From: Desulfocapsaceae bacterium
Lineage (GTDB): Bacteria > Desulfobacterota > Desulfobulbia > Desulfobulbales > Desulfocapsaceae
Direction of reading: 5' to 3'
Assembly: GCA_963675545.2 (NCBI GenBank)
Contig: CAXXRX010000001.1
Location: 96,326 to 160,325 of the forward strand
Length of the DNA: 64,000 nt
Shown: piece by piece, positions 9,965 to 58,050 of the stretch
How positions within the stretch are numbered: position 1 is the first letter of the stretch
Layout: every line of letters begins with the position of its first letter
Program-made: the position numbers and the translations under genes
The notes under the pieces: model-generated
What the model saw: the letters and a program-made list of their open reading frames with translations, nothing else
What the model was told of the DNA's origin: nothing
Databases searched by the model: none

Positions 9965-9967
9965 AAC

Positions 9968-15085: not shown

Positions 15086-15093
15086 ACGATGTG

Positions 15094-15128: not shown

Positions 15129-15133
15129 CCGGT

Positions 15134-33017: not shown

Positions 33018-35177
33018 TCAGCTGCCCAGTAGGGTTTTCTTGTCCTGCAGCCAGTCACGTACCCGGTTGCTGATCAGGCGTCCAAGTGAAATACGGGATC
33101 CGCGTGTGTACAGGGTCGCCGGTTGACCGTCTTTCACTTTTTCCGTCACTTCTGCCGGCAGCTCCACATCAAGTGTGAACCGTGGTGCAAACAGTTCAAA
33201 ACGATAGCGCTGCTCCATATCCTTTCCGGTAGTGGAGACAGCCTGCTGTCGGACATCGAGCGGCCCTCCGTACACTGCTCCCAGCGCCGGATGGATCAGT
33301 TCACTGGTTGCAGTGGGTGAAACCTGTTTGAGTGTGCCGGTAACAATACCGAGTCCTGCGGAGCGCATGTCTATTTTCAGGGGCTGGTTTATCAGTGCCC
33401 GGAACTGTTCAACATCATCTTGAGAGGCGCTTGCGGTGATCTGCTTCTGTCCCGGACTGACGATCCAGAAAACTTCCTGGCCCCTGAAAAGATAGGTTCC
33501 CTCAAGTGCATCAAGACCGGCGCCAACAATAACGCCATCACCTTGGGCGCGGACATTGATGGCTCTCAGGTCTGCCTCTCTATCCTGCAGTTTTTCCGAC
33601 AGGTTCTGCTGCTGTTCCTGGAGGATCTGCAGTTTGGTGAGTTGGCCGGTGGACTGGGCGAGACGTCGTTCCAGTTCCAGCTGTTGGATCTGCAGCTGCA
33701 GATCACGGGCAGCATGTGTGAGCTCAGTATTCTCCAGGGTCAGCAGCAGCGCACCCCGGCGTACCTGCTGGCCTGCCGTGACGTAGACATTGCCGACAAA
33801 ACCTTCGGTTTCCGGGCGGACACTGTACTGGTGTCGGTATTCAACGATTGCCGGAGCTTGAATCCTCTGCTCCCAGCTGATCAGGCGAAGGGTGACGGTG
33901 ATGACCAGCAGGGTTAGAGAAAGGCGCAGCAGCAGGTGGCGCAGGGCATGAGGATTCTGTTGCCGGTGAAGCGGCAGCCGCTTAAGAAACTGGTAGACAG
34001 GCATGCCGACCCAGACAACGGCAGCACCGATCGTTGCCAGGATGCCGAAGCCTCCGGCCATGGTGCTGGCGATATAGCCAAGAGAGACGAGAATGAAGAG
34101 GCGCCAGAGATAGATGGCGACGCCATAAAACCTGATAAACCACTGTTTCGGGCTGTTTCGATACAGAGCTCCAGAGGAAATGCCGAGAAACCAGCGTGTT
34201 CCGATTGACCTGATGAACTGCAGGCCGTGGCTGTAAAGATTGGGTATGCCGATCAGGTCGGAAAGGACGTAATAACCATCAAAACGCATGAGCGGATTGG
34301 CATTGAAAAGCAGGGAACTGACCGAGGCGATTATGAACGTATTATGGGCTATGAACCCCGCCGTGGTGTTCGGTTGTCCGGCCCAGACCAGAAGCGCTGC
34401 CCAGCCGATACCGAGCTCGATGAACATGCCGGCGACAGCAACGTGAATGCGCTGCCATTTTGAGGGAAAATTCCATGACGAGGTGGCATTGACATAGGTA
34501 AGCGGAATAAAGAGAATCAGCAGAATGCCGGCCTCGTAAACTCTGCCGCCGTAGCGGCGACAGACCAGGGCGTGAAACAATTCATGAAACAGTTTGAGAG
34601 AAAACCAGATGAGCCAGATAAAAAAAACATTGCCTGCTGAGAAAAAACCGGCGGCCTGACTGCTGAACTCCTGCCATCTTGAAAAAAGCGTACCGAGCGC
34701 CGAGACGGCAAGAATCAGCCAGAGCGCAGCAAACCACTTGCCGGTCAGCCAGGTAAATTTTGGACTGAGGTAGTCCAGCAGAGGGTCCGGATTGAACAGC
34801 GGCACCTTGATGGTGATGATATTGAGCCGGCTGAAGCGCCGGGCATTTTTCTGTTTCTCTTCGATCTCCAGGGCCTGGACCAGGGGGGCGGCATCATCTA
34901 CCTGCAGGAGCTGCCTGGCTGCCAGCCAGTTGAGAATAGCCTGGGCCTGTTCGCTGTCCAGGCGTGTATCACCGGTCTGCGCGACACTCTCCAGCAATTG
35001 TTCAAGTCCGGAGGCCTGGTTCAGCCTGCTGATAAACAGATACTCCTCAAGGCCGATCCGGTAATAGGTGTTGCGAACCGGATCTTTCAGGATGTACTGA
35101 ATACGGTTGCCTTCTTTGACCGGGGAAAAGCGGAGCTCGGAACGGAGTCTCGGCAGGGATGATTCGGCGTGTGCCAT
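33018..35177 (-). CDS. M50 (site-2-protease-type) zinc metalloprotease fused to a C-terminal HlyD-type periplasmic adaptor domain
   Basis: Intramembrane 'HELFH' (34572-34586) and 'NANPLMRFDG' (34275-34304) are the two M50 catalytic motifs. The C-terminal ~300 aa has a lipoyl-like hairpin ('GFVGNVYVTAGQQVRRGALLLTLEN'), a long coiled coil and a beta-barrel like membrane-fusion proteins. Confidence 0.8.
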   Translation of the reverse strand: MAHAESSLPRLRSELRFSPVKEGNRIQYILKDPVRNTYYRIGLEEYLFISRLNQASGLEQLLESVAQTGDTRLDSEQAQAILNWLAARQLLQVDDAAPLVQALEIEEKQKNARRFSRLNIITIKVPLFNPDPLLDYLSPKFTWLTGKWFAALWLILAVSALGTLFSRWQEFSSQAAGFFSAGNVFFIWLIWFSLKLFHELFHALVCRRYGGRVYEAGILLILFIPLTYVNATSSWNFPSKWQRIHVAVAGMFIELGIGWAALLVWAGQPNTTAGFIAHNTFIIASVSSLLFNANPLMRFDGYYVLSDLIGIPNLYSHGLQFIRSIGTRWFLGISSGALYRNSPKQWFIRFYGVAIYLWRLFILVSLGYIASTMAGGFGILATIGAAVVWVGMPVYQFLKRLPLHRQQNPHALRHLLLRLSLTLLVITVTLRLISWEQRIQAPAIVEYRHQYSVRPETEGFVGNVYVTAGQQVRRGALLLTLENTELTHAARDLQLQIQQLELERRLAQSTGQLTKLQILQEQQQNLSEKLQDREADLRAINVRAQGDGVIVGAGLDALEGTYLFRGQEVFWIVSPGQKQITASASQDDVEQFRALINQPLKIDMRSAGLGIVTGTLKQVSPTATSELIHPALGAVYGGPLDVRQQAVSTTGKDMEQRYRFELFAPRFTLDVELPAEVTEKVKDGQPATLYTRGSRISLGRLISNRVRDWLQDKKTLLGS

Positions 35178-35183
35178 AATGGG

Positions 35184-37049
35184 CTAGAAAAGGAAATCCT
35201 TCAACTGCAGCAGGGTATACCAGGGTTTGTGAAAGACAATCCAGCCCAGGGGCCGGGAACCGGCCTGGATAACTGCCTGTCCACGCATGCCCGGCCTGAG
35301 CCTGCCGTCCGGGTTGTCGAACTCAAGCTCGGCAATAAAAACATTGCGATTCTCCCTGATCTCTGATTTCGGGTTGATTTTTTTTATGGATCCAACCCAG
35401 GAACTATCGGGATAGGCGTCGAATCTCACCCGCACATCCATGTCCGGCTGCAGGTGGGTAATATGGTTTTCGCGCACCGCAAGTTCAACAATCATTACTT
35501 CCAGTGGTGACACTTCAAACAGGCTCTGGCCTTTGCTCACAGGGCTGCCGAGTGCCCGCTTGAGGTCGCCGGAGAGCACGATGCCGTCCACCGGGCTCTG
35601 CAGGATGAGGTGCTTTTGCTGCTCGAGCAGCAGGTTGAGCTGCTCGTCGAGCCGCTGTTCCTCGAGCCTGGCAATCTGGGCTCCGGCGGTATTGCCGAGT
35701 GCCAGGTGATGGTCCCGCATTTTCCGGGCCTTGTTGCGTTCTGCCGTTACTGCCGCCCGGGTACTTTCATTCTCCCTGCCATCGAGAATGGCGAGCGTAT
35801 CACCGTTCTGAACCTTGTCTCCGGGCTGCACCAGGACGTCCTGGAGAATTCCATCGAATCTGGCAACAACGAACCTGGTTGAAACCGGCTGTACCAGGCT
35901 CGGCGTACTCAGGCGAAAGGGCAGCGGCACCATGCCGATTGCTCCCAGCAGCGCAATGGCTGCAGGTACCAGCAAATATCTGCTGAACCGGCGTGTCTTG
36001 CCCGCTCCCCGATTTTTCAGCGCAGTGGAAACAGAGCTGCCTCCTTTTTCCTGCACAACGCCAAGGCAGGAAGCCAGCATGCTCCGGCCTGCAGCAAGGG
36101 ATGAAATAAGCCCCTGCCGCTTTCCCGGCTTCTGCCAGAGAAAAATGAGTGCACCTGTCATGGTGCCCTGCGAGTCGCTGAGCGAGAGGCCGACTGCCTG
36201 GGAGTTTGAGCTGCTGTTCAGCAGCTCCTGGAACAGAGCTGAGCTCTGTTCCAGTGCCTCGCTGATTGCCGGAAAAACGAGAATGTCCTGCTGGATGGTG
36301 CATTCATTGAGGGCTTTGGTGTAGATCCTTGATTGTTCGCTGCGCTGATCCACCGAGGTGAGGTGGGAAAGCGAACTGAGAATCATGCGTCCGGAAGCTG
36401 TCATCGTGCCGATTGCCACCTGCTCGCAGTCAGCCCAGGAACGCAGTCGGGCATTGAGCTGCAGCAGGGCTTCCGGCTGGTTACGGTATTCAAGGCTCGT
36501 GGCGACAAGGGCAACCAGCTGCCGGAACAGGTCCCTGTCACTGCCGGCAGGGGGGTTGTCTTTTTCGAGAAACGTACAGAGCAGGGAGGTCAGCAGCTGA
36601 ATGATCACCAGAAAAGATTCGATAGGCTGATCACCCGTGAGAATGATAAAAGACAGACAACCGGTATGTTGGTTATCATATCCTGCCGGGCAGGAAATCA
36701 GCCGGGCGGCGGGAATATTTTCAAGGGTGCCTAATTGTGCCTGTCCACTGTTCACGGCACGCTGGGCATGTTGCTGCATGCAGTCGACTAGATCTGAAGA
36801 CCAGGAGAGGGCCTGCCTGGAGAGCAGTTGCTGTTCGACTGCAAGATCACCGTTCTGCTCCCGGCTAAAATAGATGACACCTGCGGCATTGACCAGGCCG
36901 ACTGCTGCCTGCAGGAAGTCCAGGATAAGCCGATGGCGAGTCTCCGCCTGGTCGCCAAGTTGCTGGAACTGGCTGGAAAGCCGGTGAATGTCCGGGCGTT
37001 TTATGACACCACTGCCCGGAGTGGCGCGGTTTGATAGAATATCGCTCAA
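35184..37049 (-). CDS. HlyD-type membrane-fusion protein with a ~350-aa cytoplasmic N-terminal domain of unknown family
   Basis: Single TM (YLLVPAAIALLGAIGMVPLPF) at about aa 355-375, then 'ARFDGILQDVLVQPGDKVQNGDTLAILD', a coiled coil and 'SPVDGIVLSG'. TTG start at 37049 with no obvious SD. Its stop lies 6 bp before the next gene. Confidence 0.7.
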   Translation of the reverse strand: MSDILSNRATPGSGVIKRPDIHRLSSQFQQLGDQAETRHRLILDFLQAAVGLVNAAGVIYFSREQNGDLAVEQQLLSRQALSWSSDLVDCMQQHAQRAVNSGQAQLGTLENIPAARLISCPAGYDNQHTGCLSFIILTGDQPIESFLVIIQLLTSLLCTFLEKDNPPAGSDRDLFRQLVALVATSLEYRNQPEALLQLNARLRSWADCEQVAIGTMTASGRMILSSLSHLTSVDQRSEQSRIYTKALNECTIQQDILVFPAISEALEQSSALFQELLNSSSNSQAVGLSLSDSQGTMTGALIFLWQKPGKRQGLISSLAAGRSMLASCLGVVQEKGGSSVSTALKNRGAGKTRRFSRYLLVPAAIALLGAIGMVPLPFRLSTPSLVQPVSTRFVVARFDGILQDVLVQPGDKVQNGDTLAILDGRENESTRAAVTAERNKARKMRDHHLALGNTAGAQIARLEEQRLDEQLNLLLEQQKHLILQSPVDGIVLSGDLKRALGSPVSKGQSLFEVSPLEVMIVELAVRENHITHLQPDMDVRVRFDAYPDSSWVGSIKKINPKSEIRENRNVFIAELEFDNPDGRLRPGMRGQAVIQAGSRPLGWIVFHKPWYTLLQLKDFLF

Positions 37050-37064
37050 TGGTACGAAATGGTG

Positions 37065-37367
37065 CTAGTTGACGTCCGACAGCTTTGCCTGCGCAGCAGC
37101 GGGAACCTTTGCGGGATCTGCATCCTGTTTGTTTAAAACGTTGCCAAGTACGGCATGCAGGCGTTTGGCACCATTGATGGTCATGGCCATTCGGGTATGA
37201 ATCGGCAGGATGGACTCACCGCCGGCCGGGTCGGTGATCGGGCCTGAGGAAAAATTAATTGTCAGGTCTTCACCGCTGGTGTTGACAATAAACTGGGACG
37301 CATAGAGGGCCGAGGTCTCGTTGTAACGGACCTTGATCTGCTGTTGTTTCTTGGCATCATCTGTCAT
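37065..37367 (-). CDS. DUF3467-like small cytoplasmic protein
   Basis: 100 aa. 'YASQFIVNTSGEDLTINFSSG....LPIHTRMAMTINGAKRLHAVLGNVL' follows the DUF3467 pattern (Y.N......s..EF.lDF ... sR....p..AKRL..aL..n). GGAG SD upstream. Confidence 0.55.
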   Translation of the reverse strand: MTDDAKKQQQIKVRYNETSALYASQFIVNTSGEDLTINFSSGPITDPAGGESILPIHTRMAMTINGAKRLHAVLGNVLNKQDADPAKVPAAAQAKLSDVN

Positions 37368-37385
37368 GTAGCTATCTCCATGAAG

Positions 37386-38219
37386 TTATCGTTTCGTGAA
37401 CGTGCAGCGGCTGCCGCTCATCAGGTTGTTATCCGGGTTGGCAATGGTGACGCGGACCTCGACGGTACCGCTCTGGGCATTGATGATTGGTGAGATAAAA
37501 GCAATTGTTCCGGAAGCGGCTACCCCATCAATTTCAAGAGGCAGCGTTGTCCCGTGATCCAGGGTGATCGCAATCTCAGGCGGCAGGTGAAAGAGCGCCT
37601 GCAGCGGGTCGAGCTGGACGATCGTCATGAACCGTTCCTGGTCAGTACCGCCGATCAGTTCCGCCAGTTGGCGGTCGATTGTAACGACGATGCCGTCAAC
37701 CGGGCTGCGGAGTTTCTTTTCTTCGATCTGGGCCCGGATGATTGCCGCTTCAAGTTTTTTCAGTGTCTGTTCTTCGAGTGCGCTCTGCAGTTGTGCCCGG
37801 GCCATGAAAAGATCCGTCTGGGCTTTGGTCATTTCCTGGGGGCGGGCGTTGCCGCTTTTCTGCAGGTCCTGTAGCATCTCATACCTGTTTTCCTGCATGG
37901 TGACAAACGCTTTGGCCGAATCTATTCTGCCCTTGAACGAAGCGGCGGTTTCGGCTGATTCCAGCCTCGCTTTGAGCACACTGCTGTCAAGTTCGGCAAG
38001 CAGCTGTCCTGCCTCAACCTTGTCTCCAATGCCGACGTGGATAGCGGTTATACGGTCTCGAAACGGCGCAGAGATCTCTACAACCTGCACCGGTTCCAGA
38101 AAGGCGTCATAGCTCTGGGCCGAAACAAATTGAGCCGGCAAGAGAAGAAAAACAGCAATAATGAGACAGCGTGCAGCACGCGGCCATGCAGTGGTGTCCT
38201 GCCGAGTAATCAGGGTCAT
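37386..38219 (-). CDS. short HlyD/RND-type periplasmic adaptor (membrane-fusion) protein
   Basis: Signal/anchor (CLIIAVFLLLPAQFVSAQ), a lipoyl-like motif 'ISAPFRDRITAIHVGIGDKVEAGQLLAELD', a coiled coil and 'SPVDGIVVTI'. Start at ATG 38219, 13 bp after the TolC-like stop; the ORF is open to 38294. Confidence 0.7.
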   Translation of the reverse strand: MTLITRQDTTAWPRAARCLIIAVFLLLPAQFVSAQSYDAFLEPVQVVEISAPFRDRITAIHVGIGDKVEAGQLLAELDSSVLKARLESAETAASFKGRIDSAKAFVTMQENRYEMLQDLQKSGNARPQEMTKAQTDLFMARAQLQSALEEQTLKKLEAAIIRAQIEEKKLRSPVDGIVVTIDRQLAELIGGTDQERFMTIVQLDPLQALFHLPPEIAITLDHGTTLPLEIDGVAASGTIAFISPIINAQSGTVEVRVTIANPDNNLMSGSRCTFTKR

Positions 38220-38232
38220 CGCGGTCGGAGAA

Positions 38233-40056
38233 TCAGTTCGATCGTACCTGCATGTCCGGCAGCGTTTGCCCATCTTCAGGTTTAACCTCTGCAAAGGTGA
38301 TATTGTTGTTGCTGACCAGGATTCCCATGGCCCGATAAAGGTTGAAAAGCGAGTAATTGTAGGTCAGCTCACTTTTGGCAAACAGTTCCTCTGAATCGCT
38401 CAGCCGTTCGCCGGCGTCCATCAGTCGGTAGAGCACATCTCCATAGGGTTCGTTGTTGGCCAGCAGGTAATCGACCTGCGAGAGCAGGGCCTTGACCTCT
38501 TCATCATCAGAGATCATGATCTGGTAACTCTGTACCATGGAACGGTAATTTTTTTCAAGCTCCCGATATGAAACCTGGGTTTCGAGCAGCACGTTTTCAA
38601 CGGTGGTGTCAAGCTGGTGCAGGAGCTGCCGGATCTCCAGCTTTTTTCTGGTGTTACGGGCCTTGGCGCCATTGTTGCCCAGCGGGTACTCAAAGCGCAG
38701 TCCCGCCACATAGCTGGGACCGCCTTCATCAAACTGGTCGGAGTAGGCTGTGCCATACTCGTAATCTCCCTCAAGCCCTTTGACATAGGTCTGGAAAAAC
38801 AGATCCAGGTCCGGCATCAGTTCATTTTTGGAACGGTCCAGACGCAGGTTGGCAGACTGGATATGCTTGACGGCCTGGGCTACTTCAGGGCGATTGTTTA
38901 AGGTTGTCTGCAGAGCCTGGTCAAAAACGACCTCAAACGGCTTGTTGCTGGGCATCTGGCTGGTGACCATCTCCAGTCCTGAAGCATTTAACAACTCCGG
39001 ATCGTTGACCAGAGCGCGGATGCGGGACTGGGCGTTGAGCATGGCGTATTCCGCCTGCATCGCGGCGAGCTTGTGGGCATTGACCAGGGACCTGGAGCGT
39101 GCCAGCAGGCTGGGCGGCACATCGACGCCGCTGCGCTGCTGCATCTGTTTGAAAATGTCGAGGCTTTTACTGGCAAGCTGTTTTTTCTGCAGCAGCAGGG
39201 AGCGTTCCAGGTAAAGCCCCCAATAGGCGCGGCTCACCTCAAGCAGATGGCTCTCCACACTGCGCCGCAGTTCCTCACCGGCGATTGAATAATCAATTCC
39301 GGCAAGATCAATAGGTGAGCGGTTGTAACCAATGCCGAAGCGCTTCAGCAGTGGCTGGCTGATGGTCAGGTAGGTGCCTGCCCTGGCCTGTTCTTCCGGG
39401 TTGAAATAAATGGAATTGGTGTCCATGTCGCCGATATTCTGCTTCAGCTCGACCTCTGTTCCTGTCAGGAATTTTTTACGCACACCGTATTCCAGATTCC
39501 TGGCATCTTCTTCATAGCGCAGCGGCCCGCCGGTCTGCAGGTCATCCCCCACCGGTTCATCGAGATCAGAGAGACGTCCTTCGGCGAACAGCCTGAAATC
39601 GTATGGTCCTTGCGCTTCCTGGATTGTTGTCTGGCGAATAAGCGGCAGGTCGCTGAAAACCTTGATCTGGGATGAGTGTTTCAGGGCACGACTGAACAGC
39701 GAGGTAACGTTTGTTGAGATTTCCGCTACGCTCTGATTGATCCGACCGTTGACACGTGTCTGCCACCAGGGAGAAAAATTTTCCGGGATGGAACCGGAGT
39801 CGATTTCCAATTGGTCTTCCGAGGTGCCGGAAAAAACACTGGTGTAGCCCTTTTCAGACTGTTCCATCTGCTCGATCAGCATCGAGTATCTCTGGAACAG
39901 CCTGGTCTTCAGATCATCATAATCGAGCTCGCTTTGCTGTGCAGCCTCTACAACCAGCTCATAGTCTGATGCCGCCTTGTCCTGGGCGTGGAGGGCGTTT
40001 ATCCAGGAAAGACTGCCGACAACTGCAAGCGCAATGAATATGGATCGTGTTTTCAT
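38233..40056 (-). CDS. TolC-family outer membrane efflux/secretion protein (unusually long, 607 aa)
   Basis: Signal peptide (IALAVVGSLSWINALHA). Two OEP-type repeats, e.g. 'ALQTTLNNRPEVAQAVKHIQSANLRLDRSKNELMPDLDLF'. Confidence 0.85.
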   Translation of the reverse strand: MKTRSIFIALAVVGSLSWINALHAQDKAASDYELVVEAAQQSELDYDDLKTRLFQRYSMLIEQMEQSEKGYTSVFSGTSEDQLEIDSGSIPENFSPWWQTRVNGRINQSVAEISTNVTSLFSRALKHSSQIKVFSDLPLIRQTTIQEAQGPYDFRLFAEGRLSDLDEPVGDDLQTGGPLRYEEDARNLEYGVRKKFLTGTEVELKQNIGDMDTNSIYFNPEEQARAGTYLTISQPLLKRFGIGYNRSPIDLAGIDYSIAGEELRRSVESHLLEVSRAYWGLYLERSLLLQKKQLASKSLDIFKQMQQRSGVDVPPSLLARSRSLVNAHKLAAMQAEYAMLNAQSRIRALVNDPELLNASGLEMVTSQMPSNKPFEVVFDQALQTTLNNRPEVAQAVKHIQSANLRLDRSKNELMPDLDLFFQTYVKGLEGDYEYGTAYSDQFDEGGPSYVAGLRFEYPLGNNGAKARNTRKKLEIRQLLHQLDTTVENVLLETQVSYRELEKNYRSMVQSYQIMISDDEEVKALLSQVDYLLANNEPYGDVLYRLMDAGERLSDSEELFAKSELTYNYSLFNLYRAMGILVSNNNITFAEVKPEDGQTLPDMQVRSN

Positions 40057-40083
40057 TCTTTTTCCCTTTTAATCGTGTGGTTA

Positions 40084-46000: not shown

Positions 46001-49000
46001 AAGTTGGTGTCGACGCCATCGATCCGGGCGCTCTGGATAGCTCCGAACGTAGTCCCCTGGGCCAGGGTATCGTTGAAATTGACCTCGTAGGCCGTGGCGT
46101 TGCCGCCATTGTAAAGGGTCACCGTATAGGTGACGGTATCTCCAGCTTCCACGCCGGATGTCGGAGAGACATCTTTGTTCGTTTCGATCCACGGCTCGAC
46201 AACGCTCAGGCTGTCAGTATCATCGTCTGTTACCTCGTCGCCGTCAACATTGTCATAGCTCAGGGTGACCGTATTGCCGAGAGCGGTGCTGTCAAAATTG
46301 CCGGAAACATTGGCTACCCGTGCCGTATAGGAAATGATCAATGGATCGTCGGTATCAACGATGGTATCGCCAAGGTTCCAGGTTATGGTGACGGTGGCGC
46401 TGCCGTCATTGGTGCCGAAGGTCGGATCCTGGCTCAATTCGGTGGAAAAACTGCCGCTTGCCGTGCTGATTGTTGCATCATCGTTAAAAACCAGGCCGGC
46501 GATCAAAACATCTTCAATCACCAGGTTGTTGATGGTTCCTTCCGGTGCGTCGATCGTCAGGGTATAGGTGATCGTATCACCGATGGTGGCACTTGTTATA
46601 CCGCCGTCGCTCTTATCGATGGTCACGCCGGGGATGGTGAATTCCACAGTATCGATATCACGGCCAGCATTTAGGCCGTCGTCCACCGGTGAATCGACGC
46701 CGTCGTCTTCGTCATAGACCCGTTCGTTTGCTTCTCCCGGGTCGTTGTTGTCAAGACTGGACCAGTCGGCATCCACCGTGTTGGTATGGCTGCCGTCAAC
46801 AACAGCAGCGTTGGTAACGGTGGCCGTATAGACCAGGACCAGTTCAGCACCCGGAGCAAGGTCCCAGGCGTCATCGGCAAAGGTGATGACGGAGCCGTCA
46901 CCATTTGGGGTTGCGGTATTCAGATCGAAGTTGGTGTCGACGCCATCGATCCGGGCACTCTGGATAGCTCCGAACGCAGTCCCCTGGGCCAGGGTATCGT
47001 TGAAATTGACCTCGTAGGCCGTGGCGTTGCCGCCATTGTAAAGGGTCACCGTATAGGTGACTGTATCTCCAGCTTCCACGCCGGATGTCGGAGAGACATC
47101 TTTGTTCGTTTCGATCCATGGCTCGACAACGCTCAGGCTGTCACTATCATCGTCTGTTACCTCGTCGCCGTCAACATTGTCATAGCTCAGGGTGACCGTG
47201 TTGCCGAGAGCGGCGCTGTCAAAATTGCCGGAAACATTGGCTACCCGTGCCGTATAGGAAATGATCAGCGGATCGTCGGTATCAACGATGGTATCGCCAA
47301 GGTTCCAGGTTATGGTGACCGCGGTGCTGCCGTCATTGGTGCCGAAGGTCGGATCCTGGCTCAATTCGGTGGAAAAACTGCCGCTTGCCGTGCTGATTGT
47401 TGCATCATCGTTAAAAACCAGGCCGGCGATCAAAACATCTTCAATCACCAGGTTGTTGATGGTTCCTTCCGGAGCGTCAATCGTCAGGGTATAGGTGATC
47501 GTATCACCAATGGTGGCTGTGCTGGTATCACCGTCACTTTTATCGATGGTTACGCCGGGGATGGTGAATTCCGCGGTATCAACATCACGGTCTGCATTGA
47601 CGCCGCCGTCGACCGGCGAGTCCACACCGTCGTTTTCATCATAGACCCGTTCGTTCGCTTCACCCGGATCGTTGTTGTCAAGGCTTGACCAGTCTGCATC
47701 CACGGTGTTTGTGTGGCTGCCGTCAACGATTGCTGCGTTGGTCACGGTGGCCGTATAGACCAGAACCAGCTCGGCGCCCTGGGCAAGATCCCAGGCGTCA
47801 TCGGCAAAGGTGATGACGGAGTTGTCACCATTCGGGGTTGCGGTGTTCAGATCGAAGTTGGTGTCGACGCCATCGATCCGGGCGCTCTGGATAGCTCCGA
47901 ACGTAGTCCCCTGGGCCAGGGTATCGTTGAAATTGACCTCGTAGGCCGTGGCGTTGCCGCCATTGTAAAGGGTCACCGTATAGGTGACGGTATCTCCAGC
48001 TTCCACGCCGGATGTCGGAGAGACATCTTTGTTCGTTTCGATCCATGGCTCTATGACGGTAACGACAGGATCGATCGGGTCATCCACTCTGATGGGATCC
48101 CCGCCGACAGGGTTGTCATAGACCATGTAGGTGTCGTTGGTAAGCGTCGACCCGTCGTAATTGCCGGTACCAGTGAGGACATCAAGAACCAGGGCCCTGA
48201 TCCCGATGACAAAGGCGTCGTTTTCAAAACCGCCCGGGTCATTGTCAGGAGCTATCGAAACAGTGCCGAAACCAAATGATACGGCTTCACCATTTGCTGT
48301 ACCCCCGGTGATTGCCGCCGGAGGCAGGACCGGGCCGGAAAAATCCGCTGCGAGCAATCCGGATGGGTCGTTGCCTATACCGGCCTGAGTGAAGAGCTGG
48401 TAGGAGCCGTCAATATAGCTCATGCCGGCAGGTAAATCGTCGGTGACAATCAGGTTGGCCGTGTCGCCTTCGGGTAGAGTCACCAGTATATAATATTGTA
48501 CTTCCTCACCGATGGTGTAGCTCAGCGGATCTGGATCGACCTTGTCAATTGTTCCCCCTACCGTGACTATAGCGGAGGCATCAGTGATATAGTCGTCGGG
48601 ATCACCCGTGGCTGGGGTCCCAGTGCGCTCACCAGGATCGCCGTCTTCCGGCAGGCTGGTCCAGTCAATCGTGGCGGTGTTGGTCAGGTTTTCCCCGGCC
48701 TGCGGGTCGGTGGCAAGATGGGCGGTCAGGGTGATGGTATAGGTGTCGCCGAGCTCAAAACTATCCCAGAAACCCGAAAGGGTATTACCGCTGACCGTGA
48801 CGGCGTCAGATACTCCGGAAAGGGAGCCGGTGCCGGCCTGACTGGTAATGGTAACCGTGTCGTAACCTGCCGGCAGAGTGTCGGCAAGGGTGACGTCAAA
48901 GGCATCGGCAGTACTTATTTCGTTGTCGATGGCGGTCTCATTATCATGATTAATCTCGATCGTGAAGGTGACGGTATCGTCTTCGTCGGGGGTCGGGTTG

Positions 49001-52000
49001 TCGACGCTCTTGCTGACCAGCAGCTTCGGTTCGACAATCGTTACGCTTTCACCTTCGCTGACGCTATGATTATCGGAGTTGCCATCGGTCCAACTCCACA
49101 CCGCATTATTGGACAGGTTGTCGTTGTTCTGGTTGGCGCCGATATTTCTGACCAGTGCGGTGTAGGTCAGGGTCAGGGTTTCAGCCACACCGTTGTCGCG
49201 GTTCTGATTATCTAACGTGTTAAAATCGACAAAAAAGGACAGGCCGTCAGCGGCGATGCTGCCGTTTGCAGCAAGAAAAGCAAGATTGTTCGGATCACTT
49301 AGATTGCTCAGATCATAAATGGTCCCGACTGACGAGGTAAAATCAGTTGATGCTGTGGTCAGTGAGTCAAGTGAGATGATCTCCAGGCCGCCACTGGGGT
49401 CGAGATCATCAGCGAGCATGACATTCGTTGCCTGGCCCTCAGGAAGCGTGATTGCTACCGTGTAGGTGATCGTTTCCCCGATCGTGACATTCGGGTTATC
49501 GGTATGGGGCTGGCTGGTAGTATCAATTGCCTTGTCGACAAGGACATCAGGTATCTGTGCGCTCGCCTGATCTGTCAGGCCGCCGGGAATATGATTGCTG
49601 GCACCGTTGTCGCCGCCGTAGTTCTCAAGCGTTGCTGTGTTGAGCAGGGTCTGGCTGGGTCCGACATTGTCGGCCAGCAGCAGATCATAGGTAATCACCA
49701 TGATATTGGTCCCTACTGTCGGGTCGTAACCCGCAAGAGCACCGTCATCGACTGTGTCATTAAGGATCAGTCCGGTGCCGAACAGATCACCGCTGTAGGA
49801 AAGAGCGGTGCCATTGCCGTCGGTTGCCTGCAGGCTGAGGGCGACGAAGGTATAACCTGTCGGCAGCACATCGCTTATGGTGACGTCGAAAGCATCTGAA
49901 TGGCCGGTATTTTCGACGACAATGGCGACAGTGATGGTATCGCCGGCGTCGATGTTGGAGATATCGGTATCGATATTATGAGAATCCAGCCAGTCGGAGG
50001 TAATGTTCTGTTCGAGTCGACCTGCGCTACCCGGCTCGGTGAAATAGTTGTCAACAGTGGTGTTGCCGCTGTAGATATCGGCCTCATTGTCGCTCTCGAC
50101 AATACCCTTGGTAATCTCCAGTACCGGCTGGTCCAGGACGATCTGAAATATATCGTCAGTATTCGAGTCGACCAGTGGCGTGCCATTTTCGGTACCGCGC
50201 ACCTGGTTTGCCAGGTAGAGTCCGTCGGCAAATGGTTCACTGTTGACTGTTACGGTGAAAAGAATATCGATATAGGTCTGCTGAGGGGCGATATCATCGT
50301 TTTCACCGTAGACAAAGCTGAGCCTGTTTTCGCCATTTTCCGTGAACGTCTCAAGAAAGATCGGTTCGAGTGGAAAGACAGTGGAAAACGTGTCGGTGGG
50401 ACCCAGGCTCCATTCTCCTGCCCCGGGTAAACCGGCTACGGGATCACTTCCCTCGGTGAATTCATCAGCATCGAAAACCGGCAGCGGCAGGTAGTCATCA
50501 AGGCGAAACGACTCGAATTCACTGGTCGGCATCAGGTACTGCAGCTGGTAGGTAACGGTATCCCCTGGCTGCATATGCAGCCGGCCTTGGGCATCGGTGA
50601 AGCTGCTGAGATCGGTAAAACCGTTTATTGCATAGACATCTTTCTGGATCAGCTCACCGACCTCGATCTGAATTGCCGTGGCGGAATCATCAGTGTCGGT
50701 GTCGAAGCCTGTATCCGTGAGAGTACCGCTGCCGTTATCTCCATAAATCTGGCCGCTGATGTCAACATTGTTGGTAAGGAAATCACCCTGGTCAACGGAC
50801 TCATCTCCCGGGCCGGAACTGTCGCCGGTACTAATGTAGCTGTCCTTGATCAGGGCATAATAGGTGATCGTGCCCCCGGCCGGAGTGCCTGAAACAGCGC
50901 CGTCGTAAAGATCACCCTGAAGGATACCGTCCAGTCCACCTGCTACGGCCGAAATATCGAAGCTGAGTGAAGTGTCATCATCAGCCTGGGAACTGCTGGT
51001 CAGGTCGGTGCCGACAGTCCAGCCACCTGTCCATGAACCTGTTTCATCCTGAATGTCATAGATCGGAGCATAGGCCCCTGTGGTCTGGAGCTCGAGTCCG
51101 TCTGCCAGAATATCGGTGACAACAATGTCGCCGAAATTGAAATAATCTGAAATCTGAAACTCAACGGTATATTCGAGGATGTCGCCAGGGTTGTAGCCGC
51201 CGATGATACCGGTATCACTGCCCGGAAACGGTGCAAAGTCGACACCTTTCTGTACGGCAATCGCCTCCGCCTGGAAAATCTCATCGATATTCGGTGTCGG
51301 CGAGATGGTGCCGTCTCCATAGACCTCGGCATTGACAACGAGGCTCACCGAAGAATCATCGGGGTCTGTCGGGGTCCAGTTACCTTCCACCCGGGCGTTG
51401 TTGATGACTTCGCGGTCTTCAGTGCCGCCGATTACATCATCGCCGGTAGCGGGGTCGAGTATCGGTGTAACCCCGTCGGCGTAGAACTCCGGCACATAAA
51501 AATCGAACGTGATGACGACATCCTGAGCTGTAGCACCTCCAGTCACCGGGTTGTCCAATTCAACCTCAAGGACGCCGTCGGTGAAGATACCGCCTGCTGC
51601 ATTGGGCGAGGTGACGGTAAAAGACTGCCCGGTGCTGACTGCAACAGTGGCGTCGCCCAGATAATAAATTTCGTTGGGTAAGAGTTCGGTAAGCTGCAGG
51701 TTGTTGATGGTCTGGCCGTCGGCGATATCGATGGTGATCTGATATTGGTGTGGATAATTGGGTCCTGTGGCGGTTTCCTGTTCCGGGCCGAGATAAACCT
51801 TTTCAAAGCGGATAACTTCGGGGCGGAAGGTCTGGGTGTCGACCAGCGTCGGGCCGATCGGCGGATCAGTCGGTGGATCGCCAGTTGGATCATTGAGTGC
51901 GGTTTCGCCATAGCGGTAGCCGTTGTAGACCCGGATATCAAAATCCTCAGCGGCCCCGCCACTACTGTCTACCTGCCGGAATTCATCAATATGTGCGGTT

Positions 52001-52857
52001 ACCTGGACTTCGGCCGGTGGCTGGTCCGGGGTAAACGAGCCGAACGGCATCTCTATGGTGACATAGGTGTCACCCGGGGTGCCGGTGATGATAGTTGGGG
52101 CCCCGGTGGTTCCGTTAAAGTCGTAGGGGTGGATGATTTCACCGTTTGAATCAAAGGTCTGGACCGTGACCTCGAGCGGAGAACCGAGATAGGTGGCGGA
52201 GTCGGGGACGTAGGTGACCCCGTCTCCGTCTCCGTCATCCCCGCTGCTGGGCATATACAGGTCGATATAGGGTCCGTAGAGTGTCGTTCCTGAAGTATTG
52301 TTAAGTGTGACGGTAAAGGTGAAGTCCTCACCGATCATCGGATCGATTGCTTCTACTGCTGCGGGTTCGCCTTCTTGATCGCCTTCCCTGCTTTCGCTGG
52401 AGTCATTGTTCGAGTCTGCAAGAGTAGCAGGCTCCGGGGTATCATCGTCGGGAGCGTCGGCCTCGTCTTGAAGCTGCTGCTCTGTGTCTGTTTCAAGAGG
52501 AGCTTCCCCGTTATCAGCGGATTCACCGCTGTCCGGTTGTGAAGCTGCCGCGACTATTTCCTGGCCTTCTTCAGCTGCAGTGGGGGGAATTGTAGCAGCG
52601 GGCTCATCACCGGTCTCTTCCGGTACGCTTTCTGGTTGGCTTTCCTGAACACTGCCGTTGGTCTCGGTATCCTGGGGCGCGGCGGAGATATCAGGCTGCG
52701 GGAGTATAACGGGCTGGGTCGGGTTCAGATCACCTGCCGGGTCAACAGCGGTGTCGAACGGCTCGACGGGATCCAGTGCCGCGACTGGGTTGGCATCAAG
52801 AAAGATACGTTCTTCCAGTTGTTCGAGAAGCAAATATTTTTTAAGAGATTTTTTCAT
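40084..52857 (-). CDS. giant (4257 aa) secreted/surface repeat protein: LEPR-XLL-like N-terminus, acidic disordered region, DUF11-type beta-domains, 12 SdrD-B/Cna-B-like Ca-binding domains, Pro-rich linker, C-terminal domain
   Basis: Single uninterrupted 12,774-nt ORF. The N-terminus 'MKKSLKKYLLLEQLEERIFLDANPV' has no hydrophobic Sec h-region. Repeated 'TYT(V/L)T..N.G...A' DUF11-like strands, then 12 x 'GSIGDTI(F/W/Y).D.D..G......G..GV.VTL..D.DGDGT......TTD..G.Y.F.NLP.G.Y.V.VD...LP'. Confidence 0.9.
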   Translation of the reverse strand: MKKSLKKYLLLEQLEERIFLDANPVAALDPVEPFDTAVDPAGDLNPTQPVILPQPDISAAPQDTETNGSVQESQPESVPEETGDEPAATIPPTAAEEGQEIVAAASQPDSGESADNGEAPLETDTEQQLQDEADAPDDDTPEPATLADSNNDSSESREGDQEGEPAAVEAIDPMIGEDFTFTVTLNNTSGTTLYGPYIDLYMPSSGDDGDGDGVTYVPDSATYLGSPLEVTVQTFDSNGEIIHPYDFNGTTGAPTIITGTPGDTYVTIEMPFGSFTPDQPPAEVQVTAHIDEFRQVDSSGGAAEDFDIRVYNGYRYGETALNDPTGDPPTDPPIGPTLVDTQTFRPEVIRFEKVYLGPEQETATGPNYPHQYQITIDIADGQTINNLQLTELLPNEIYYLGDATVAVSTGQSFTVTSPNAAGGIFTDGVLEVELDNPVTGGATAQDVVITFDFYVPEFYADGVTPILDPATGDDVIGGTEDREVINNARVEGNWTPTDPDDSSVSLVVNAEVYGDGTISPTPNIDEIFQAEAIAVQKGVDFAPFPGSDTGIIGGYNPGDILEYTVEFQISDYFNFGDIVVTDILADGLELQTTGAYAPIYDIQDETGSWTGGWTVGTDLTSSSQADDDTSLSFDISAVAGGLDGILQGDLYDGAVSGTPAGGTITYYALIKDSYISTGDSSGPGDESVDQGDFLTNNVDISGQIYGDNGSGTLTDTGFDTDTDDSATAIQIEVGELIQKDVYAINGFTDLSSFTDAQGRLHMQPGDTVTYQLQYLMPTSEFESFRLDDYLPLPVFDADEFTEGSDPVAGLPGAGEWSLGPTDTFSTVFPLEPIFLETFTENGENRLSFVYGENDDIAPQQTYIDILFTVTVNSEPFADGLYLANQVRGTENGTPLVDSNTDDIFQIVLDQPVLEITKGIVESDNEADIYSGNTTVDNYFTEPGSAGRLEQNITSDWLDSHNIDTDISNIDAGDTITVAIVVENTGHSDAFDVTISDVLPTGYTFVALSLQATDGNGTALSYSGDLFGTGLILNDTVDDGALAGYDPTVGTNIMVITYDLLLADNVGPSQTLLNTATLENYGGDNGASNHIPGGLTDQASAQIPDVLVDKAIDTTSQPHTDNPNVTIGETITYTVAITLPEGQATNVMLADDLDPSGGLEIISLDSLTTASTDFTSSVGTIYDLSNLSDPNNLAFLAANGSIAADGLSFFVDFNTLDNQNRDNGVAETLTLTYTALVRNIGANQNNDNLSNNAVWSWTDGNSDNHSVSEGESVTIVEPKLLVSKSVDNPTPDEDDTVTFTIEINHDNETAIDNEISTADAFDVTLADTLPAGYDTVTITSQAGTGSLSGVSDAVTVSGNTLSGFWDSFELGDTYTITLTAHLATDPQAGENLTNTATIDWTSLPEDGDPGERTGTPATGDPDDYITDASAIVTVGGTIDKVDPDPLSYTIGEEVQYYILVTLPEGDTANLIVTDDLPAGMSYIDGSYQLFTQAGIGNDPSGLLAADFSGPVLPPAAITGGTANGEAVSFGFGTVSIAPDNDPGGFENDAFVIGIRALVLDVLTGTGNYDGSTLTNDTYMVYDNPVGGDPIRVDDPIDPVVTVIEPWIETNKDVSPTSGVEAGDTVTYTVTLYNGGNATAYEVNFNDTLAQGTTFGAIQSARIDGVDTNFDLNTATPNGDNSVITFADDAWDLAQGAELVLVYTATVTNAAIVDGSHTNTVDADWSSLDNNDPGEANERVYDENDGVDSPVDGGVNADRDVDTAEFTIPGVTIDKSDGDTSTATIGDTITYTLTIDAPEGTINNLVIEDVLIAGLVFNDDATISTASGSFSTELSQDPTFGTNDGSTAVTITWNLGDTIVDTDDPLIISYTARVANVSGNFDSAALGNTVTLSYDNVDGDEVTDDDSDSLSVVEPWIETNKDVSPTSGVEAGDTVTYTVTLYNGGNATAYEVNFNDTLAQGTAFGAIQSARIDGVDTNFDLNTATPNGDGSVITFADDAWDLAPGAELVLVYTATVTNAAVVDGSHTNTVDADWSSLDNNDPGEANERVYDEDDGVDSPVDDGLNAGRDIDTVEFTIPGVTIDKSDGGITSATIGDTITYTLTIDAPEGTINNLVIEDVLIAGLVFNDDATISTASGSFSTELSQDPTFGTNDGSATVTITWNLGDTIVDTDDPLIISYTARVANVSGNFDSTALGNTVTLSYDNVDGDEVTDDDTDSLSVVEPWIETNKDVSPTSGVEAGDTVTYTVTLYNGGNATAYEVNFNDTLAQGTTFGAIQSARIDGVDTNFDLNTATPNGDNSVITFADDAWDLAQGAELVLVYTATVTNAAIVDGSHTNTVDADWSSLDNNDPGEANERVYDENDGVDSPVDGGVNADRDVDTAEFTIPGVTIDKSDGDTSTATIGDTITYTLTIDAPEGTINNLVIEDVLIAGLVFNDDATISTASGSFSTELSQDPTFGTNDGSTAVTITWNLGDTIVDTDDPLIISYTARVANVSGNFDSAALGNTVTLSYDNVDGDEVTDDDTDSLSVVEPWIETEKSVADSLDSGTDAQWNETLTYTVRFTNGGNSTAYEVNALDTLAPGTSFVSYSSVSSSFGAVADPTMTDNDDGTVSIVGNWDIPVGEYVEIEYTVTVLDAIFLPTPHENSVDADWSGQDGSDPDERVYDEDDGIDSPVDDGIFADRDVGETVFTVITTSSIGDTVFFDTDQSGSETPGDTGITDILVTLSADTDGDGTSDFTWTDTTDENGYYLFENLPAFDNYTVTVDPVNLPDGTIATYDLDGIDTEHVISGIALDIAEARDDADFGYFNQGTGSIGDTVWYDADADGVFDAGEQGLGGVTLTLTGDITGDNLGDISLTTTTDENGNYSFENLLPGNYTVTIDATPAGMEQTFDLDGLGTPDNASIALADGENNNNVDFGYTGAGSIGDTIFFDADNSGGETPGDAGIPGITVTLTGDVNNDGIEDVLTTTTDADGRYLFENLRDGTYTVTVDPADLPGGMSPSADPDGGNDNTSTVILAGGIDELDEDFGYTGTGIIGDTIWDDVDGDGTQNGGETGLSGVDVTLSVDFDGDGTPDYTATTTTNGSGTYSFGNLPEGTYTISIDTDDIPDGYVLTADPDANPDSTTTVNLPAGGTNLDQDFGYWDSGQSTGSIGDTIYFDADGSGGQNGTEPGLSGVTVTLTGDIDGDGTADTVTTTTDSNGMYLFDNIVGGDYTIIINPATLPAGLSPTQDPDGGTANQAILTLAADEDNLDQDFGYNGTGSIGDTIFFDGNNNGTQETNEGGINGVQVTIDLDLDGDGVADYTYVDTTDADGNYLFENLPAGGYTVTVDPASLPLGIIQSSDPDSALDNTSTLVLGGAQNNLLQDFGYTGTGSIGDTIWNDTDGDGLQNGSETGIAGVDITITADIDSDGTPDYTQTVTTDSNGTYLFNNLPDGDYTLIVDPLTLPAGLSQSGDPDGTNDNMTMLGLTAGENNLDQDFGYNSGTGSIGDTIFFDSDGSGDQNGTETGLPGVSVTLTGDLDGDGTPDSVTTTTDANGNYLFDNLPAGSFVITVDPASLPAGMNQTADPDNDGIANQASVILADGEDNLDQDFGYQGSGSIGDTIWNDVINDGIQDGGEPGLPGIDVTLSFDFDGDGTVDYTQTDTTDASGNYLFENLPGGTYVVSVDTSDIPDGYVLTADPDSNPDSTSTVNLPAGGTNLDQDFGYHNTGASTGSIGDTIYFDENNNGTQDGSDVGLPGVTVSLSGDIDGDGTTETVTTTTDASGTYSFDNLPAGDYTITVDQSTLPGGMSQTEDPDGVNNSTTVVSLGAGEDNDEQDFGYTGSGVIGDTIYFDTDGDGTQDAGENGMPGIDVTISVDFDGDGTPDYTATVATDAAGTYSFDNLPAGEYTISVDPASLPADVRPSGDPDGTPDNSTTLNLGPGAVNNDQDFGYTGTGSIGDTIYFDADGNGYQSSGERGLSGVRVTLQGDFDNDGTIEAVTTTTDATGTYLFDNLTAGQYTVYVDTTTLPPDLTQTGDPDAILDNQSQVTLAAGENDLSRDFGYFGPSPFPGPRPPDPGEPVVPITPPSRPPSPGPVEPPAQGLVADAFFMYRQFGDQGDIFTRFEEQPWLLPPLPVSPIYSGLAEPGTTIELVLHDAMGNQVGYRSVMADTAGNWLADLPETIMFELPHHMEIGQTISSYNASSAGFFNMRTYFYPSFSSMVYSSTSLDVETVFAYLPSTVLQSMHQSNLSTFDIRWDGFKGYEFDAPSTQPARNSH
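40723..44778 (-). repeat. array of 12 diverged ~113-aa SdrD-B/Cna-B-like domain repeats (coding)
   Basis: Counted 12 'IGDT(I/V)(F/W/Y)' repeat starts between 'SSIGDTVFFDTD' (44778) and the final 'DFGYFG' (40723). Each carries DxDxDG-type loops. Confidence 0.8.
45271..48051 (-). repeat. three tandem 927-bp (309-aa) near-identical coding repeats inside the giant gene
   Basis: The 'EPWIETNKD' unit boundaries recur at about 48051, 47124 and 46197, with a diverged fourth boundary ('EPWIETEKS') at about 45270. Antisense track ORFs repeat at exactly 927-bp steps (45859/46786/47713). Confidence 0.9.
52753..52857 (-). other. LEPR-XLL-like N-terminal motif of the giant protein (aa 1-35)
   Basis: 'YLLLEQLEERIFLDANPVAA' compared with the family-defining 'LEPR.LL(S/D)A' pattern; here LE-E-R-I-F-L, with Pro replaced by Glu. 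It sits at the extreme N-terminus of a very large repetitive protein, as in that family. Confidence 0.6.
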
Positions 52858-53180
52858 GATGTAATACTCTTGCTTGATTTAACCAGCAGCGCAAACATGC
52901 CAACACTATGAAGTACAGTACTAAAGACCCATCGTGCCATTATAAGTACATAATTTTGATTTACTATTACTAAATATATCGGAACCTATCAATTAACTTA
53001 AGAATAATTATCATCATGTTCAATGTTATGTATCGACATCCCAGAGAGGAATCTGAATGACTTTTTGATGTCAGCGTAGCGGTCAGGTCAAAAAGGAGTT
53101 CGAGACCGGGAAGCTGCTGTTGGCAGGATTTTGATGTAATGCTGTTTCTGCGGGAGGATAGCTGCAGGGTTAATGTGAAA

Positions 53181-53378
53181 TCAGTTGTTTTTCGACTTTT
53201 GGTATTCCTTGTAATTCATACTATTTACTCTCTCCAGGCAGGCATCGATATCGCTATTGTTGAGATGTTTGTAGCATTCATTTCGTTCTCGTGCCCGGAA
53301 TCCTTCATACCAGGCCTGATAGCTGCACCCCTGGACAAGCAGGGCAGCAAAAAAAAAACAAAACAAGACCATGAGCAA
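53181..53378 (-). CDS. possible small Cys-containing lipoprotein (63-65 aa)
   Basis: Hydrophobic N-terminus ending in the lipobox-like 'LLVQGC', with three further Cys. TTG start at 53378 or ATG at 53372, and no basic n-region, so support is weak. Contains a T10 (A10 on the plus strand) tract. Confidence 0.35.
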   Translation of the reverse strand: MLMVLFCFFFAALLVQGCSYQAWYEGFRARERNECYKHLNNSDIDACLERVNSMNYKEYQKSKNN

Positions 53379-53408
53379 CGTTTTTATTTCGTAATTGTAT
53401 CGACACTG

Positions 53409-54176: not shown

Positions 54177-54196
54177 GGTGATTTTCCCACCTCAGT

Positions 54197-55306: not shown

Positions 55307-55313
55307 GGGTACT

Positions 55314-56492: not shown

Positions 56493-56686
56493 AGACAGTG
56501 TGAATACGGAATTGGATAACAAGGGCGGACCGTCACCGTTGTCCTTGTCAATGGGGGGACACAAGCAGGTTATTCAAAATACAGCAAATAACCGTGTGCA
56601 CCAGGCGCCGCCGGTTCATGCTGAATGCCGGCTGCGGACATTCAGCATGAACCCTTGAGAATCTGCGTGATTCCTGTTTTAAAAAT

Positions 56687-57715: not shown

Positions 57716-58050
57716 AGACTTCCTCCAGATAGATGGTATTGATTTTGGGATTGACGTCCCGGGCTTAAAACCTGCTGTTAAAGGTACTGCAGGTGTGACA
57801 ACTGTCCATGTCACCACCATTTGATAACACAGGTTTATACTTATCAGCAACAAGTTTGATGAACGCTTAAAATTTCCTTTTAAAAAAACACCAGAGCTGT
57901 GAGCCCCACCTTCCCACTGTTTAGCTTTTCTTTCACGATGAGAAATAGTAAGCTCCGCACTGATTGATTATTGTGTGGTAAAAAGACGGCTATATTTACT
58001 ATGGCAAACAGATAACAATGTGATTTGAGACACCAACGGAGATTGACGGG

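Follow-up and report, generated by a model that had tools for sequence, protein, structure and literature searches.

A Protease-Adaptor-TolC Gene Cluster from a Desulfocapsaceae Bacterium as a Candidate ABC-Independent Export Module for a Leader-Bearing Giant Protein

Six minus-strand genes in a 64-kb stretch of DNA from a Desulfocapsaceae bacterium (the whole of which is referred to here as the window) encode a giant repeat protein, a TolC-family outer membrane factor (OMF), a DUF3467 protein, and three periplasmic adaptor proteins, one of which is fused to an M50 intramembrane metalloprotease (M50-HlyD). The reading that we favor, with a probability of roughly 0.55, is that this cluster is a type-I-like exporter, independent of an ATP-binding cassette (ABC) transporter, that would carry leader-bearing giant proteins across the cell envelope in one step, with the giant protein as its cargo. 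A module of this kind has been described previously (PMC4452313); the cluster is its counterpart in Desulfobacterota and differs in having DUF3467, a cis-encoded giant putative cargo, and no cis-encoded SecA paralog. The main advance beyond the earlier description is that a probable cargo class is identified, together with its leader motif.

Results and Discussion

The giant protein and its N-terminal leader

The genes and motifs of the cluster, in the order from the giant gene to the M50-HlyD gene, are as follows (positions in the window).

40084..52857, minus strand: giant putative cargo, acidic, Cys-free, repeat-rich, and adhesin-like, 4257 aa (open reading frame [ORF] and Pfam)
52786..52818, minus strand: leader motif of the giant protein, L14-E-E-R-I-F-L-D-A-N-P24 (NF012209 and strict motif)
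38233..40056, minus strand: TolC-family OMF with a Sec signal peptide, 607 aa (Pfam OEP)
37386..38219, minus strand: short periplasmic adaptor (membrane fusion protein), 277 aa (HlyD_D23/HlyD_3, TIGR01730)
37065..37367, minus strand: DUF3467 protein, cytoplasmic, a lineage-specific accessory component, 100 aa (PF11950)
35184..37049, minus strand: long adaptor with a cytoplasmic N-terminal domain, 621 aa (HlyD_D23, transmembrane prediction)
33018..35177, minus strand: fusion of an M50 (site-2-protease-type) intramembrane metalloprotease with a periplasmic HlyD adaptor, 719 aa (profiles, alignment A1, structure model)
34572..34586, minus strand: HELFH zinc-binding/catalytic motif, M50-HlyD residues 198-202 (alignment A1)
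34275..34298, minus strand: NPLMRFDG, M50-HlyD residues 294-301, second site-2-protease signature with the third zinc ligand, Asp

All six ORFs were verified at these coordinates, the gene calls of the source records give identical protein lengths, and the intergenic gaps are 27, 13, 18, 15, and 6 bp, so that the composition and tight packing given in the initial annotation are confirmed. Its domain calls were likewise recovered with profile searches (OEP, HlyD in three proteins, DUF3467, SdrD_B, and DUF11); M50 fell below the Pfam cutoff, with its motifs invariant.

Pfam domains in the giant protein include 12 copies of SdrD_B and 7 of DUF11, along with CarboxypepD_reg and SpaA. The protein contains no Cys, is 13.2% Asp, and has 753 Asp and Glu residues versus 70 Lys and Arg residues. 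A Cys-free, highly acidic composition is typical of substrates that are threaded unfolded via TolC-type channels. In precomputed annotations PF01345 carries the label 'CLIPPER' (L081:13381-18771 and other loci) versus DUF11 in the hmmscan library; the domain has perhaps been renamed or characterized recently.

The N terminus of the giant protein reads MKKSLKKYLLLEQLEERIFLDANP. A basic stretch, MKKSLKK, precedes the leader motif LEERIFLDANP; the residues E, Q, E, E, and R fall inside the leader, and a hydrophobic Sec-type core is absent. The count of GGxGxD in the 4257 residues is zero, and the giant protein thus has neither a Sec-type signal nor RTX repeats, as had been claimed. The last 399 residues matched no family besides SdrD-type repeats; an uncleaved C-terminal signal that lacks repeats is beyond detection from sequence.

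The leader resembles that of LEPR-XLL proteins (NF012209), in which an N-terminal motif of the L-E-x-R-x-L-L type heads a very long repetitive protein. The window variant scores 16.4 bits on NF012209 (E 0.005) versus a cutoff of 17, and the earlier term 'LEPR-XLL-like' is therefore fair yet borderline. Orthologs in Desulfobacterota (P0212, P0214, P0227, and P0261) keep LLLEQLE[ED]RIFLDANP, and NCBI names P0261 as a LEPR-XLL domain protein. Among homologs of the first passenger domain (P0211-P0289, homologs of giant-protein residues 1 to 700), about a third begin with a LExR-type leader, whereas in about half this position is taken by a classical Sec signal peptide. The named members of the former group are from Planctomycetaceae, Desulfobulbaceae, Verrucomicrobiota, Gammaproteobacteria, and a Roseococcus, and those of the latter mostly from Anaerolineales and other Chloroflexi. 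Because the same passenger domain is headed by either the leader or a Sec signal, the leader takes the place of an export signal.

Leader-bearing genes are neighbors of the module

Conservation was evaluated in the best 80 loci retrieved with M50-HlyD, in which ORFs were mapped against the window proteins. Many of them belong to Pirellulaceae, and the others to further Planctomycetota or to Desulfobacterota, Verrucomicrobiota, Thiotrichales, and a Saprospiraceae metagenome-assembled genome (MAG). Large ORFs adjacent to the module share an N-terminal LExRx[LMF][LMF][SD][AG]xP motif (e.g., LEERALFDAVP, LEPRVLFDAAP, and LEDRVLFSASP, compared to LEERIFLDANP in the window). When a strict regular expression derived from the module neighbors was scanned against 2717 ORFs of at least 100 aa, every one of the 22 matches fell among residues 1 to 70 of its ORF, and the other 398,546 residues gave no match. 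The window giant protein satisfies this expression.

The leader-bearing genes were strongly associated with the module. Nineteen of the 21 located in the loci were its immediate neighbor, compared to 9.1 expected for a random position among the non-module genes (Poisson-binomial P = 1e-6), which bears out the proposed co-localization of the module with LEPR-type cargo. This adjacency spans Planctomycetota, Verrucomicrobiota, and Desulfobacterota. Module neighbors in L023 and L047 add two variants, LEDRxLYDASP, with Tyr at one position, and, among the neighbors tested, three (in L057, L071, and L026) pass the LEPR-XLL cutoff (25.5, 28.9, and 17.4 bits, respectively). In DUF3467-type clusters and related proteobacterial clusters (L001-L004, L007, L051, L080, L081, and L088-L090) a giant SdrD_B/DUF11 gene lies on the same strand just upstream of the OMF gene. 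The complete order found in the window, from the leader-bearing giant gene through the genes for the OMF, an adaptor, DUF3467, and a second adaptor to M50-HlyD, recurs in L081/L082 (headed by P0212) and in L088 (Desulfogranum marinum).

Module conservation and previous description

The M50-HlyD fusion family is large. Its full-length relatives form 3782 clusters at 50% identity (E ≤ 1e-30) and, counting only the scored candidates, at least 1130 at 90% identity, and they occur in the genomes of at least 586 species. In the 80 loci the long adaptor gene is immediately upstream of the M50-HlyD gene 70 times, the short adaptor is present in 57, and an OMF gene is within 10 kb in 39. A truncated SecA paralog was found in 25 loci and DUF3467 in 12; in each of these 12 the DUF3467 gene lies within the module.

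The initial annotation put the system forward as a candidate undescribed one, but the module had already been reported. Kamneva, Poudel & Ward (2015, PLoS One; PMC4452313) found, by comparative genomics, secondary SecA_DEAD proteins in a conserved neighborhood with Peptidase_M50-like HlyD, GAF-HlyD, and HlyD/biotin-lipoyl proteins, and sometimes OEP. They proposed that the SecA paralog is the ATPase, and the M50 protein the inner membrane component, of type-I-like secretion without an ABC transporter; experiments were limited to the re-analysis of one microarray. That study names no cargo, leader motif, DUF3467, Desulfobacterota, or giant proteins. Our literature searches returned no follow-up to it and no functional study on LEPR-XLL, DUF3467, or combinations of M50 and HlyD.

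The trio of M50-HlyD, GAF-type HlyD, and short HlyD from that report is present in the window and in 57 to 70 of the 80 loci, the reported gene order matches these loci, and OEP is nearby in some of the genomes in both cases. The reported module is defined around the truncated SecA paralog, whereas the window and eight Desulfobacterota loci are without it, and their lineage carries DUF3467. Between the two adaptor genes, DUF3467 is found in each of the seven Desulfobacterota loci long enough to include that slot; L008 ends before the slot. Beyond Desulfobacterota, DUF3467 is found in some Verrucomicrobiota, Saprospiraceae, Ca. Uabimicrobium, and a Pseudomonadota MAG.

Several loci depart from the common arrangement. 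Pirellulaceae locus L009 has two modules in inverted orientation (9959-12121 and 14440-16605), and in L062 one module is flanked by two SecA-paralog genes (4713-6830 and 12470-14527). A gene for a MltF-like lytic transglycosylase (SBP_bac_3 and SLT) is located between the OMF and short adaptor genes in L089 (5773-7245) and L090 (4359-5810), a further feature in keeping with a trans-envelope machine. In Beggiatoa/Thiotrichales loci L012, L017, L022, and L025, M50-HlyD occurs without either partner adaptor gene and its neighbors are sensor kinases or Cache-GAF proteins.

A putative motor that differs among lineages

In Planctomycetota and Verrucomicrobiota a SecA paralog of ∼640 aa is encoded between the OMF and the short adaptor. 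It has SecA_DEAD (E ∼1e-91), the preprotein cross-linking domain, and a second P-loop domain, and it retains GEGKT, DEVD, TGT, and RSGRQG. The wing/scaffold region is almost absent, and the protein lacks most of the SecA C-terminal regions as well. No SecA-like ORF was found in the eight Desulfobacterota loci (L001-L008). L041 and L056 hold both DUF3467 and the SecA paralog, and the two are therefore not simple alternatives. In L049 (5859-7748) the slot of the SecA paralog, between the upstream gene and the short adaptor, is occupied by a 629-aa exporter with ABC_membrane and ABC_tran domains, which suggests that motors are interchangeable.

In the window, a Walker A motif was sought in the five accessory proteins and was absent, and neither a SecA-like gene nor an ABC exporter was found in the 64 kb. 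An ABC-exporter query in phmmer matched only two importer-type ATPase subunits (53409-54176 and 61815-62576). The first of these belongs to the nearest ABC genes (53409-57853), and their Pfam content (SBP_bac_3, two BPD_transp_1, and ABC_tran) agrees with the previous call of a binding-protein-dependent importer. Thus, the claim that the cluster has no ATPase stands for the cluster itself and does not extend to other lineages. The motor would be lineage specific, with a SecA paralog in many lineages, an ABC exporter once, and none in cis here. The missing ATPase is a trait of the cluster in the window lineage rather than of the system, and it may mean only that the motor is not encoded in cis.

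The protease-adaptor fusion

M50-HlyD scores 24.1 bits on Pfam PF02163, under the gathering cutoff of 27.2, and a precomputed PF02163 match is present in many of its homologs. H198-E-L-F-H202 and N292..P295-x4-D300-G301 are invariant across 17 aligned homologs (alignment A1), and HExxH and NxxPx4DG are retained in 79 of 79 locus homologs from other genomes, indicating that the protease is intact. An AlphaFold2 (AF2) model built from the 17-sequence alignment (pLDDT, 77.5) has an N-terminal domain (residues 16 to 87) of three strands and three helices in beta3-alpha3 order, a polytopic helical domain that carries both catalytic motifs, a last transmembrane (TM) helix at residues 411 to 432, and a periplasmic adaptor with an alpha-hairpin at residues 484 to 538. 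The adaptor part of the model matches MacA, AcrA, MexA, and EmrA (E down to 6e-13), and it dominates the results of a whole-model Foldseek search.

When the protease part was compared by sequence with the PDB, no relatives were recovered, and there is no dedicated NCBIfam model for the fusion. In NCBIfam, the protease part was closest to the daptide intramembrane metalloprotease model NF041824 (E 1.6e-43; 149.3 bits versus a cutoff of 300), followed at a distance by YydH/LiaK, NF058609 (E 1.3e-5; 25 bits versus a cutoff of 225). These peptide-maturation proteases have HExxH and NxxPx4DG in a polytopic membrane domain, as M50-HlyD does, but they act on small peptides and lack a C-terminal periplasmic adaptor, and M50-HlyD scores far under both cutoffs. 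IMG labels M50-HlyD homologs 'putative peptide zinc metalloprotease', and PGAP labels them efflux adaptor subunits.

The daptide model aligns from residue 31 of M50-HlyD and covers most of the cytoplasmic N-terminal domain. This domain has the beta3-alpha3 order seen in the leader-peptide-binding winged-helix domains of peptide-maturation enzymes. A profile search of the PDB for a PqqD/RRE-type identity was empty, Pfam PqqD matched the domain in 1 of 28 members (weakly, E 0.02), and hhalign against PqqD aligned the expected helix with an insignificant probability of 1%. Since these profile tests are weak, the role of leader receptor is one that we infer.

The OMF, the other adaptors, and DUF3467

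The OMF matches Pfam OEP (E 5e-18) and, under its cutoff, TIGR01844 (E 2.4e-9), and it has a hydrophobic N-terminal Sec signal at residues 6 to 24. All three adaptor proteins carry HlyD_D23/HlyD_3. The short adaptor (HlyD_D23, E 3e-15; HlyD_3, E 7e-14; TIGR01730, 110.8 bits versus a cutoff of 94.9) has a predicted Sec signal peptide or membrane anchor; an alternative upstream TTG start at 38294 would overlap the OMF gene. In the long adaptor HlyD_D23 covers residues 394 to 588 (E 9e-21), and the predicted topology is ∼355 cytoplasmic residues, a TM helix at residues 358 to 376, and a periplasmic HlyD part. The cytoplasmic domain of ∼350 aa previously proposed is consistent with this prediction. 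The planctomycete homologs in L018 and L009 have tandem GAF domains (26.8 and 30.3 bits on Pfam GAF, respectively, versus a cutoff of 22.4). Pfam GAF was not detected in the window protein, in which the copy is too diverged; phmmer matches the protein to the GAF-bearing homologs.

The DUF3467 protein scores 28.1 bits on PF11950 (cutoff, 25), and its AF2 model (pLDDT, 70) has four strands and a long helix. A Foldseek search of the PDB with this model gave no significant neighbor (best, MRP1, 2gid_A, E 0.31), and a PDB profile search returned only noise. The topology prompted comparison with SecB-like chaperones, and this identity was rejected as unsupported: Foldseek returned no SecB, and the hhalign probability was 0.05% with a manually entered E. 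coli SecB sequence as the query. DUF3467 proteins of the module (alignment A2) end in a conserved A-Q-A-K-L-P-K-I-Q-like tail after a variable linker, which could be a docking peptide.

A proposed export route

The analysis shows which genes are present, that the catalytic motifs are intact, that the module is conserved, and that it adjoins leader-bearing genes; a function in export, together with recognition and cleavage of the leader and energy coupling, is what we infer. A secretion role was inferred independently in PMC4452313. The cargo, which carries no Sec signal, would be synthesized in the cytoplasm with a short N-terminal leader of basic residues followed by LExRxLF(D/S)AxP. M50-HlyD would capture the leader at the inner membrane, with the cytoplasmic beta3-alpha3 domain as the likely receptor, and the M50 active site would cut the leader off. 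The periplasmic domains of M50-HlyD, GAF-HlyD, and the short adaptor would build a tunnel to the TolC-like channel, through which the unfolded, Cys-free, acidic polypeptide would exit and then fold outside, probably with calcium. The GAF region may gate or regulate the machine. In Planctomycetota and Verrucomicrobiota the truncated SecA paralog within the module would provide ATP-driven pushing. In the window lineage a motor would have to act in trans (a SecA paralog encoded elsewhere or the housekeeping SecA) or give way to a different energy source. DUF3467 may be a cytoplasmic cargo-handling or docking factor, which is a guess.

The proposed route has parallels in canonical type I secretion (HlyB-HlyD-TolC; LapB-LapC-LapE), in which a HlyD adaptor and a TolC channel are encoded beside a giant acidic, Cys-free repeat adhesin. 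In both, the substrate is likely to be exported unfolded and in a single step. However, the window cluster has no ABC transporter and no RTX nonapeptides, it has three adaptors rather than a single one, with a protease or a GAF region joined to two of these, and its putative signal is N-terminal, whereas the canonical signal is C-terminal.

The broader proposal, that the module, with a SecA paralog or DUF3467 as partners that vary by lineage, is a distinct ABC-independent one-step pathway in thousands of diderm lineages and exports 'LEPR-XLL' giants after their leader is bound by a domain of the leader-peptide-recognition type and cleaved by the intramembrane metalloprotease, is more tentative, and we rate its chances at slightly below even.

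Several observations weigh against one-step export by this cluster. The leader of the giant protein is just under the NF012209 cutoff, and the window encodes no motor of the kinds sought. Cleavage by M50 proteases usually takes place inside or beside membrane-embedded segments, and the leader is only weakly hydrophobic. The receptor role suggested for the N-terminal domain comes from its predicted topology. In a reverse test, none of four leader-bearing metagenome loci (of 409 pattern matches) had the module in a flank, although the test was small and a long flank on the upstream side was available for L085 alone. Neither L085 nor L083 has a module within 10 kb, which indicates that adjacency is not obligatory; under the model, a single module would then have to handle a large number of dispersed cargoes.

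Alternative explanations

The alternative that fares best, although we consider it unlikely, is export in two steps. The giant protein would cross the inner membrane through SecYEG, driven by the housekeeping SecA or the paralog, with the leader serving as a Sec-targeting signal of an unusual kind. The outer membrane step alone would fall to the adaptors and TolC, and M50 would clear the leader from the membrane in the manner of RseP. Such a division of labor has precedents. MacAB-TolC performs the outer membrane step for enterotoxin STII, and the clearing of remnant signal peptides is an established site-2 protease activity (RseP/SppA). SecA-family ATPases as the conserved partner in 25 of the 80 loci, the substitution of the leader for a Sec signal peptide in homologous proteins, and the fact that the OMF and the short adaptor are themselves Sec substrates are all consistent with it. 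However, the leader has no hydrophobic core and has E, Q, E, E, and R inside it, and the SecA paralog is without most of the wing/scaffold and C-terminal regions. Fusion of an adaptor to the protease argues for a dedicated inner membrane platform over SecYEG, and a Cys-free acidic protein of 4257 aa resembles a one-step substrate.

A slightly less probable explanation is that the cluster, in the manner of LapD/LapG/LapE, retains and releases an adhesin whose secretion depends on a canonical type I system encoded elsewhere, with the GAF sensor controlling a protease that cuts an N-terminal anchor at the TolC-like pore. LapA-type adhesins are held by the N terminus in the TolC-like LapE. The GAF sensory region in homologs and the presence of a protease and an N-terminal motif beside a TolC-like gene would suit such a function. 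So would the genes that adjoin the module in L089/L090, where the M50-HlyD gene faces a convergent GGDEF gene and a gene for a PilZ protein is close by. However, the giant protein has no GGxGxD repeats, LapG- and LapD-type domains were not found in the cluster (LapD_MoxY_N, E 0.1), and the 64 kb contain no ABC exporter. Furthermore, the M50 active site is expected within the inner membrane, far from an outer membrane plug, and SecA-type motors in the module indicate translocation rather than cleavage alone.

It is quite improbable that M50 matures a small ribosomal peptide (YydH/LiaK- or daptide-like) for expulsion by the adaptors and TolC, with the giant gene a bystander, as the NCBIfam matches, the IMG and PGAP names, and the class-V aminotransferase and B12-radical-SAM genes just downstream might suggest, because the daptide match reaches half its cutoff (149 versus 300 bits), gaps of 6 to 27 bp are too small for a precursor ORF, the aminotransferase gene lies across a GC step and is beside the module in none of the 80 loci, no RND, MFS, or ABC pump is present, and the cross-phylum adjacency to leader-bearing giant genes would be left unexplained.

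Implications

Giant repeat proteins of the LEPR type occur widely among Planctomycetota, Verrucomicrobiota, and related environmental bacteria, and they have no Sec, Tat, or type I signals that would explain their export. The neighborhood link to a TolC-adaptor-protease module makes export of the giant proteins directly testable, with the machine, the signal, and the catalytic residues named. Culturable hosts include Desulfogranum marinum (L088) and Stieleria marina K23_9 (L054), and Methylobacterium extorquens AM1 is a culturable host with the module according to PMC4452313. If one-step export is correct, the pathway would unite three features that are not known from one system, namely adaptors fused to an intramembrane protease, a SecA-derived motor paired with a TolC channel, and a leader at the N terminus of the cargo. 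It would in effect be a new numbered secretion system, would explain the surface placement of the largest proteins of Planctomycetota, Verrucomicrobiota, and sulfate reducers, and would correct the annotation 'efflux RND adaptor subunit' on thousands of genes.

Surroundings of the cluster

One further feature lies directly upstream of the giant gene.

52858..53408, minus strand: 551-bp intergenic region (putative operon promoter region, by position)

From its position, this region is probably the promoter region of the operon. A promoter scan of the 551 bp gave weak sigma-70-like matches (53036-53007 and 52992-52963) that were no better than those in shuffled sequence, and promoter and terminator scans of the cluster found nothing above the shuffled expectation.

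Downstream of the M50-HlyD gene are genes for a B12-binding radical-SAM protein (28208-29482) and a class-V aminotransferase (31709-32851) and, between them, an unassigned 175-aa ORF (30022-30549). The G+C content is 0.40 at 30 to 32 kb and 0.55 in the cluster. A peptide-maturation link between the cluster and the aminotransferase and radical-SAM genes was rejected, as neither gene is conserved beside the module in any of the 80 loci and they lie across the step in G+C content; the 175-aa ORF likewise has no conserved place next to the module in other loci. On the plus strand, positions 58051-59319 of the window encode an SBD_N/NBD_C protein (four-carbon acid sugar kinase family) that is unrelated to the cluster.

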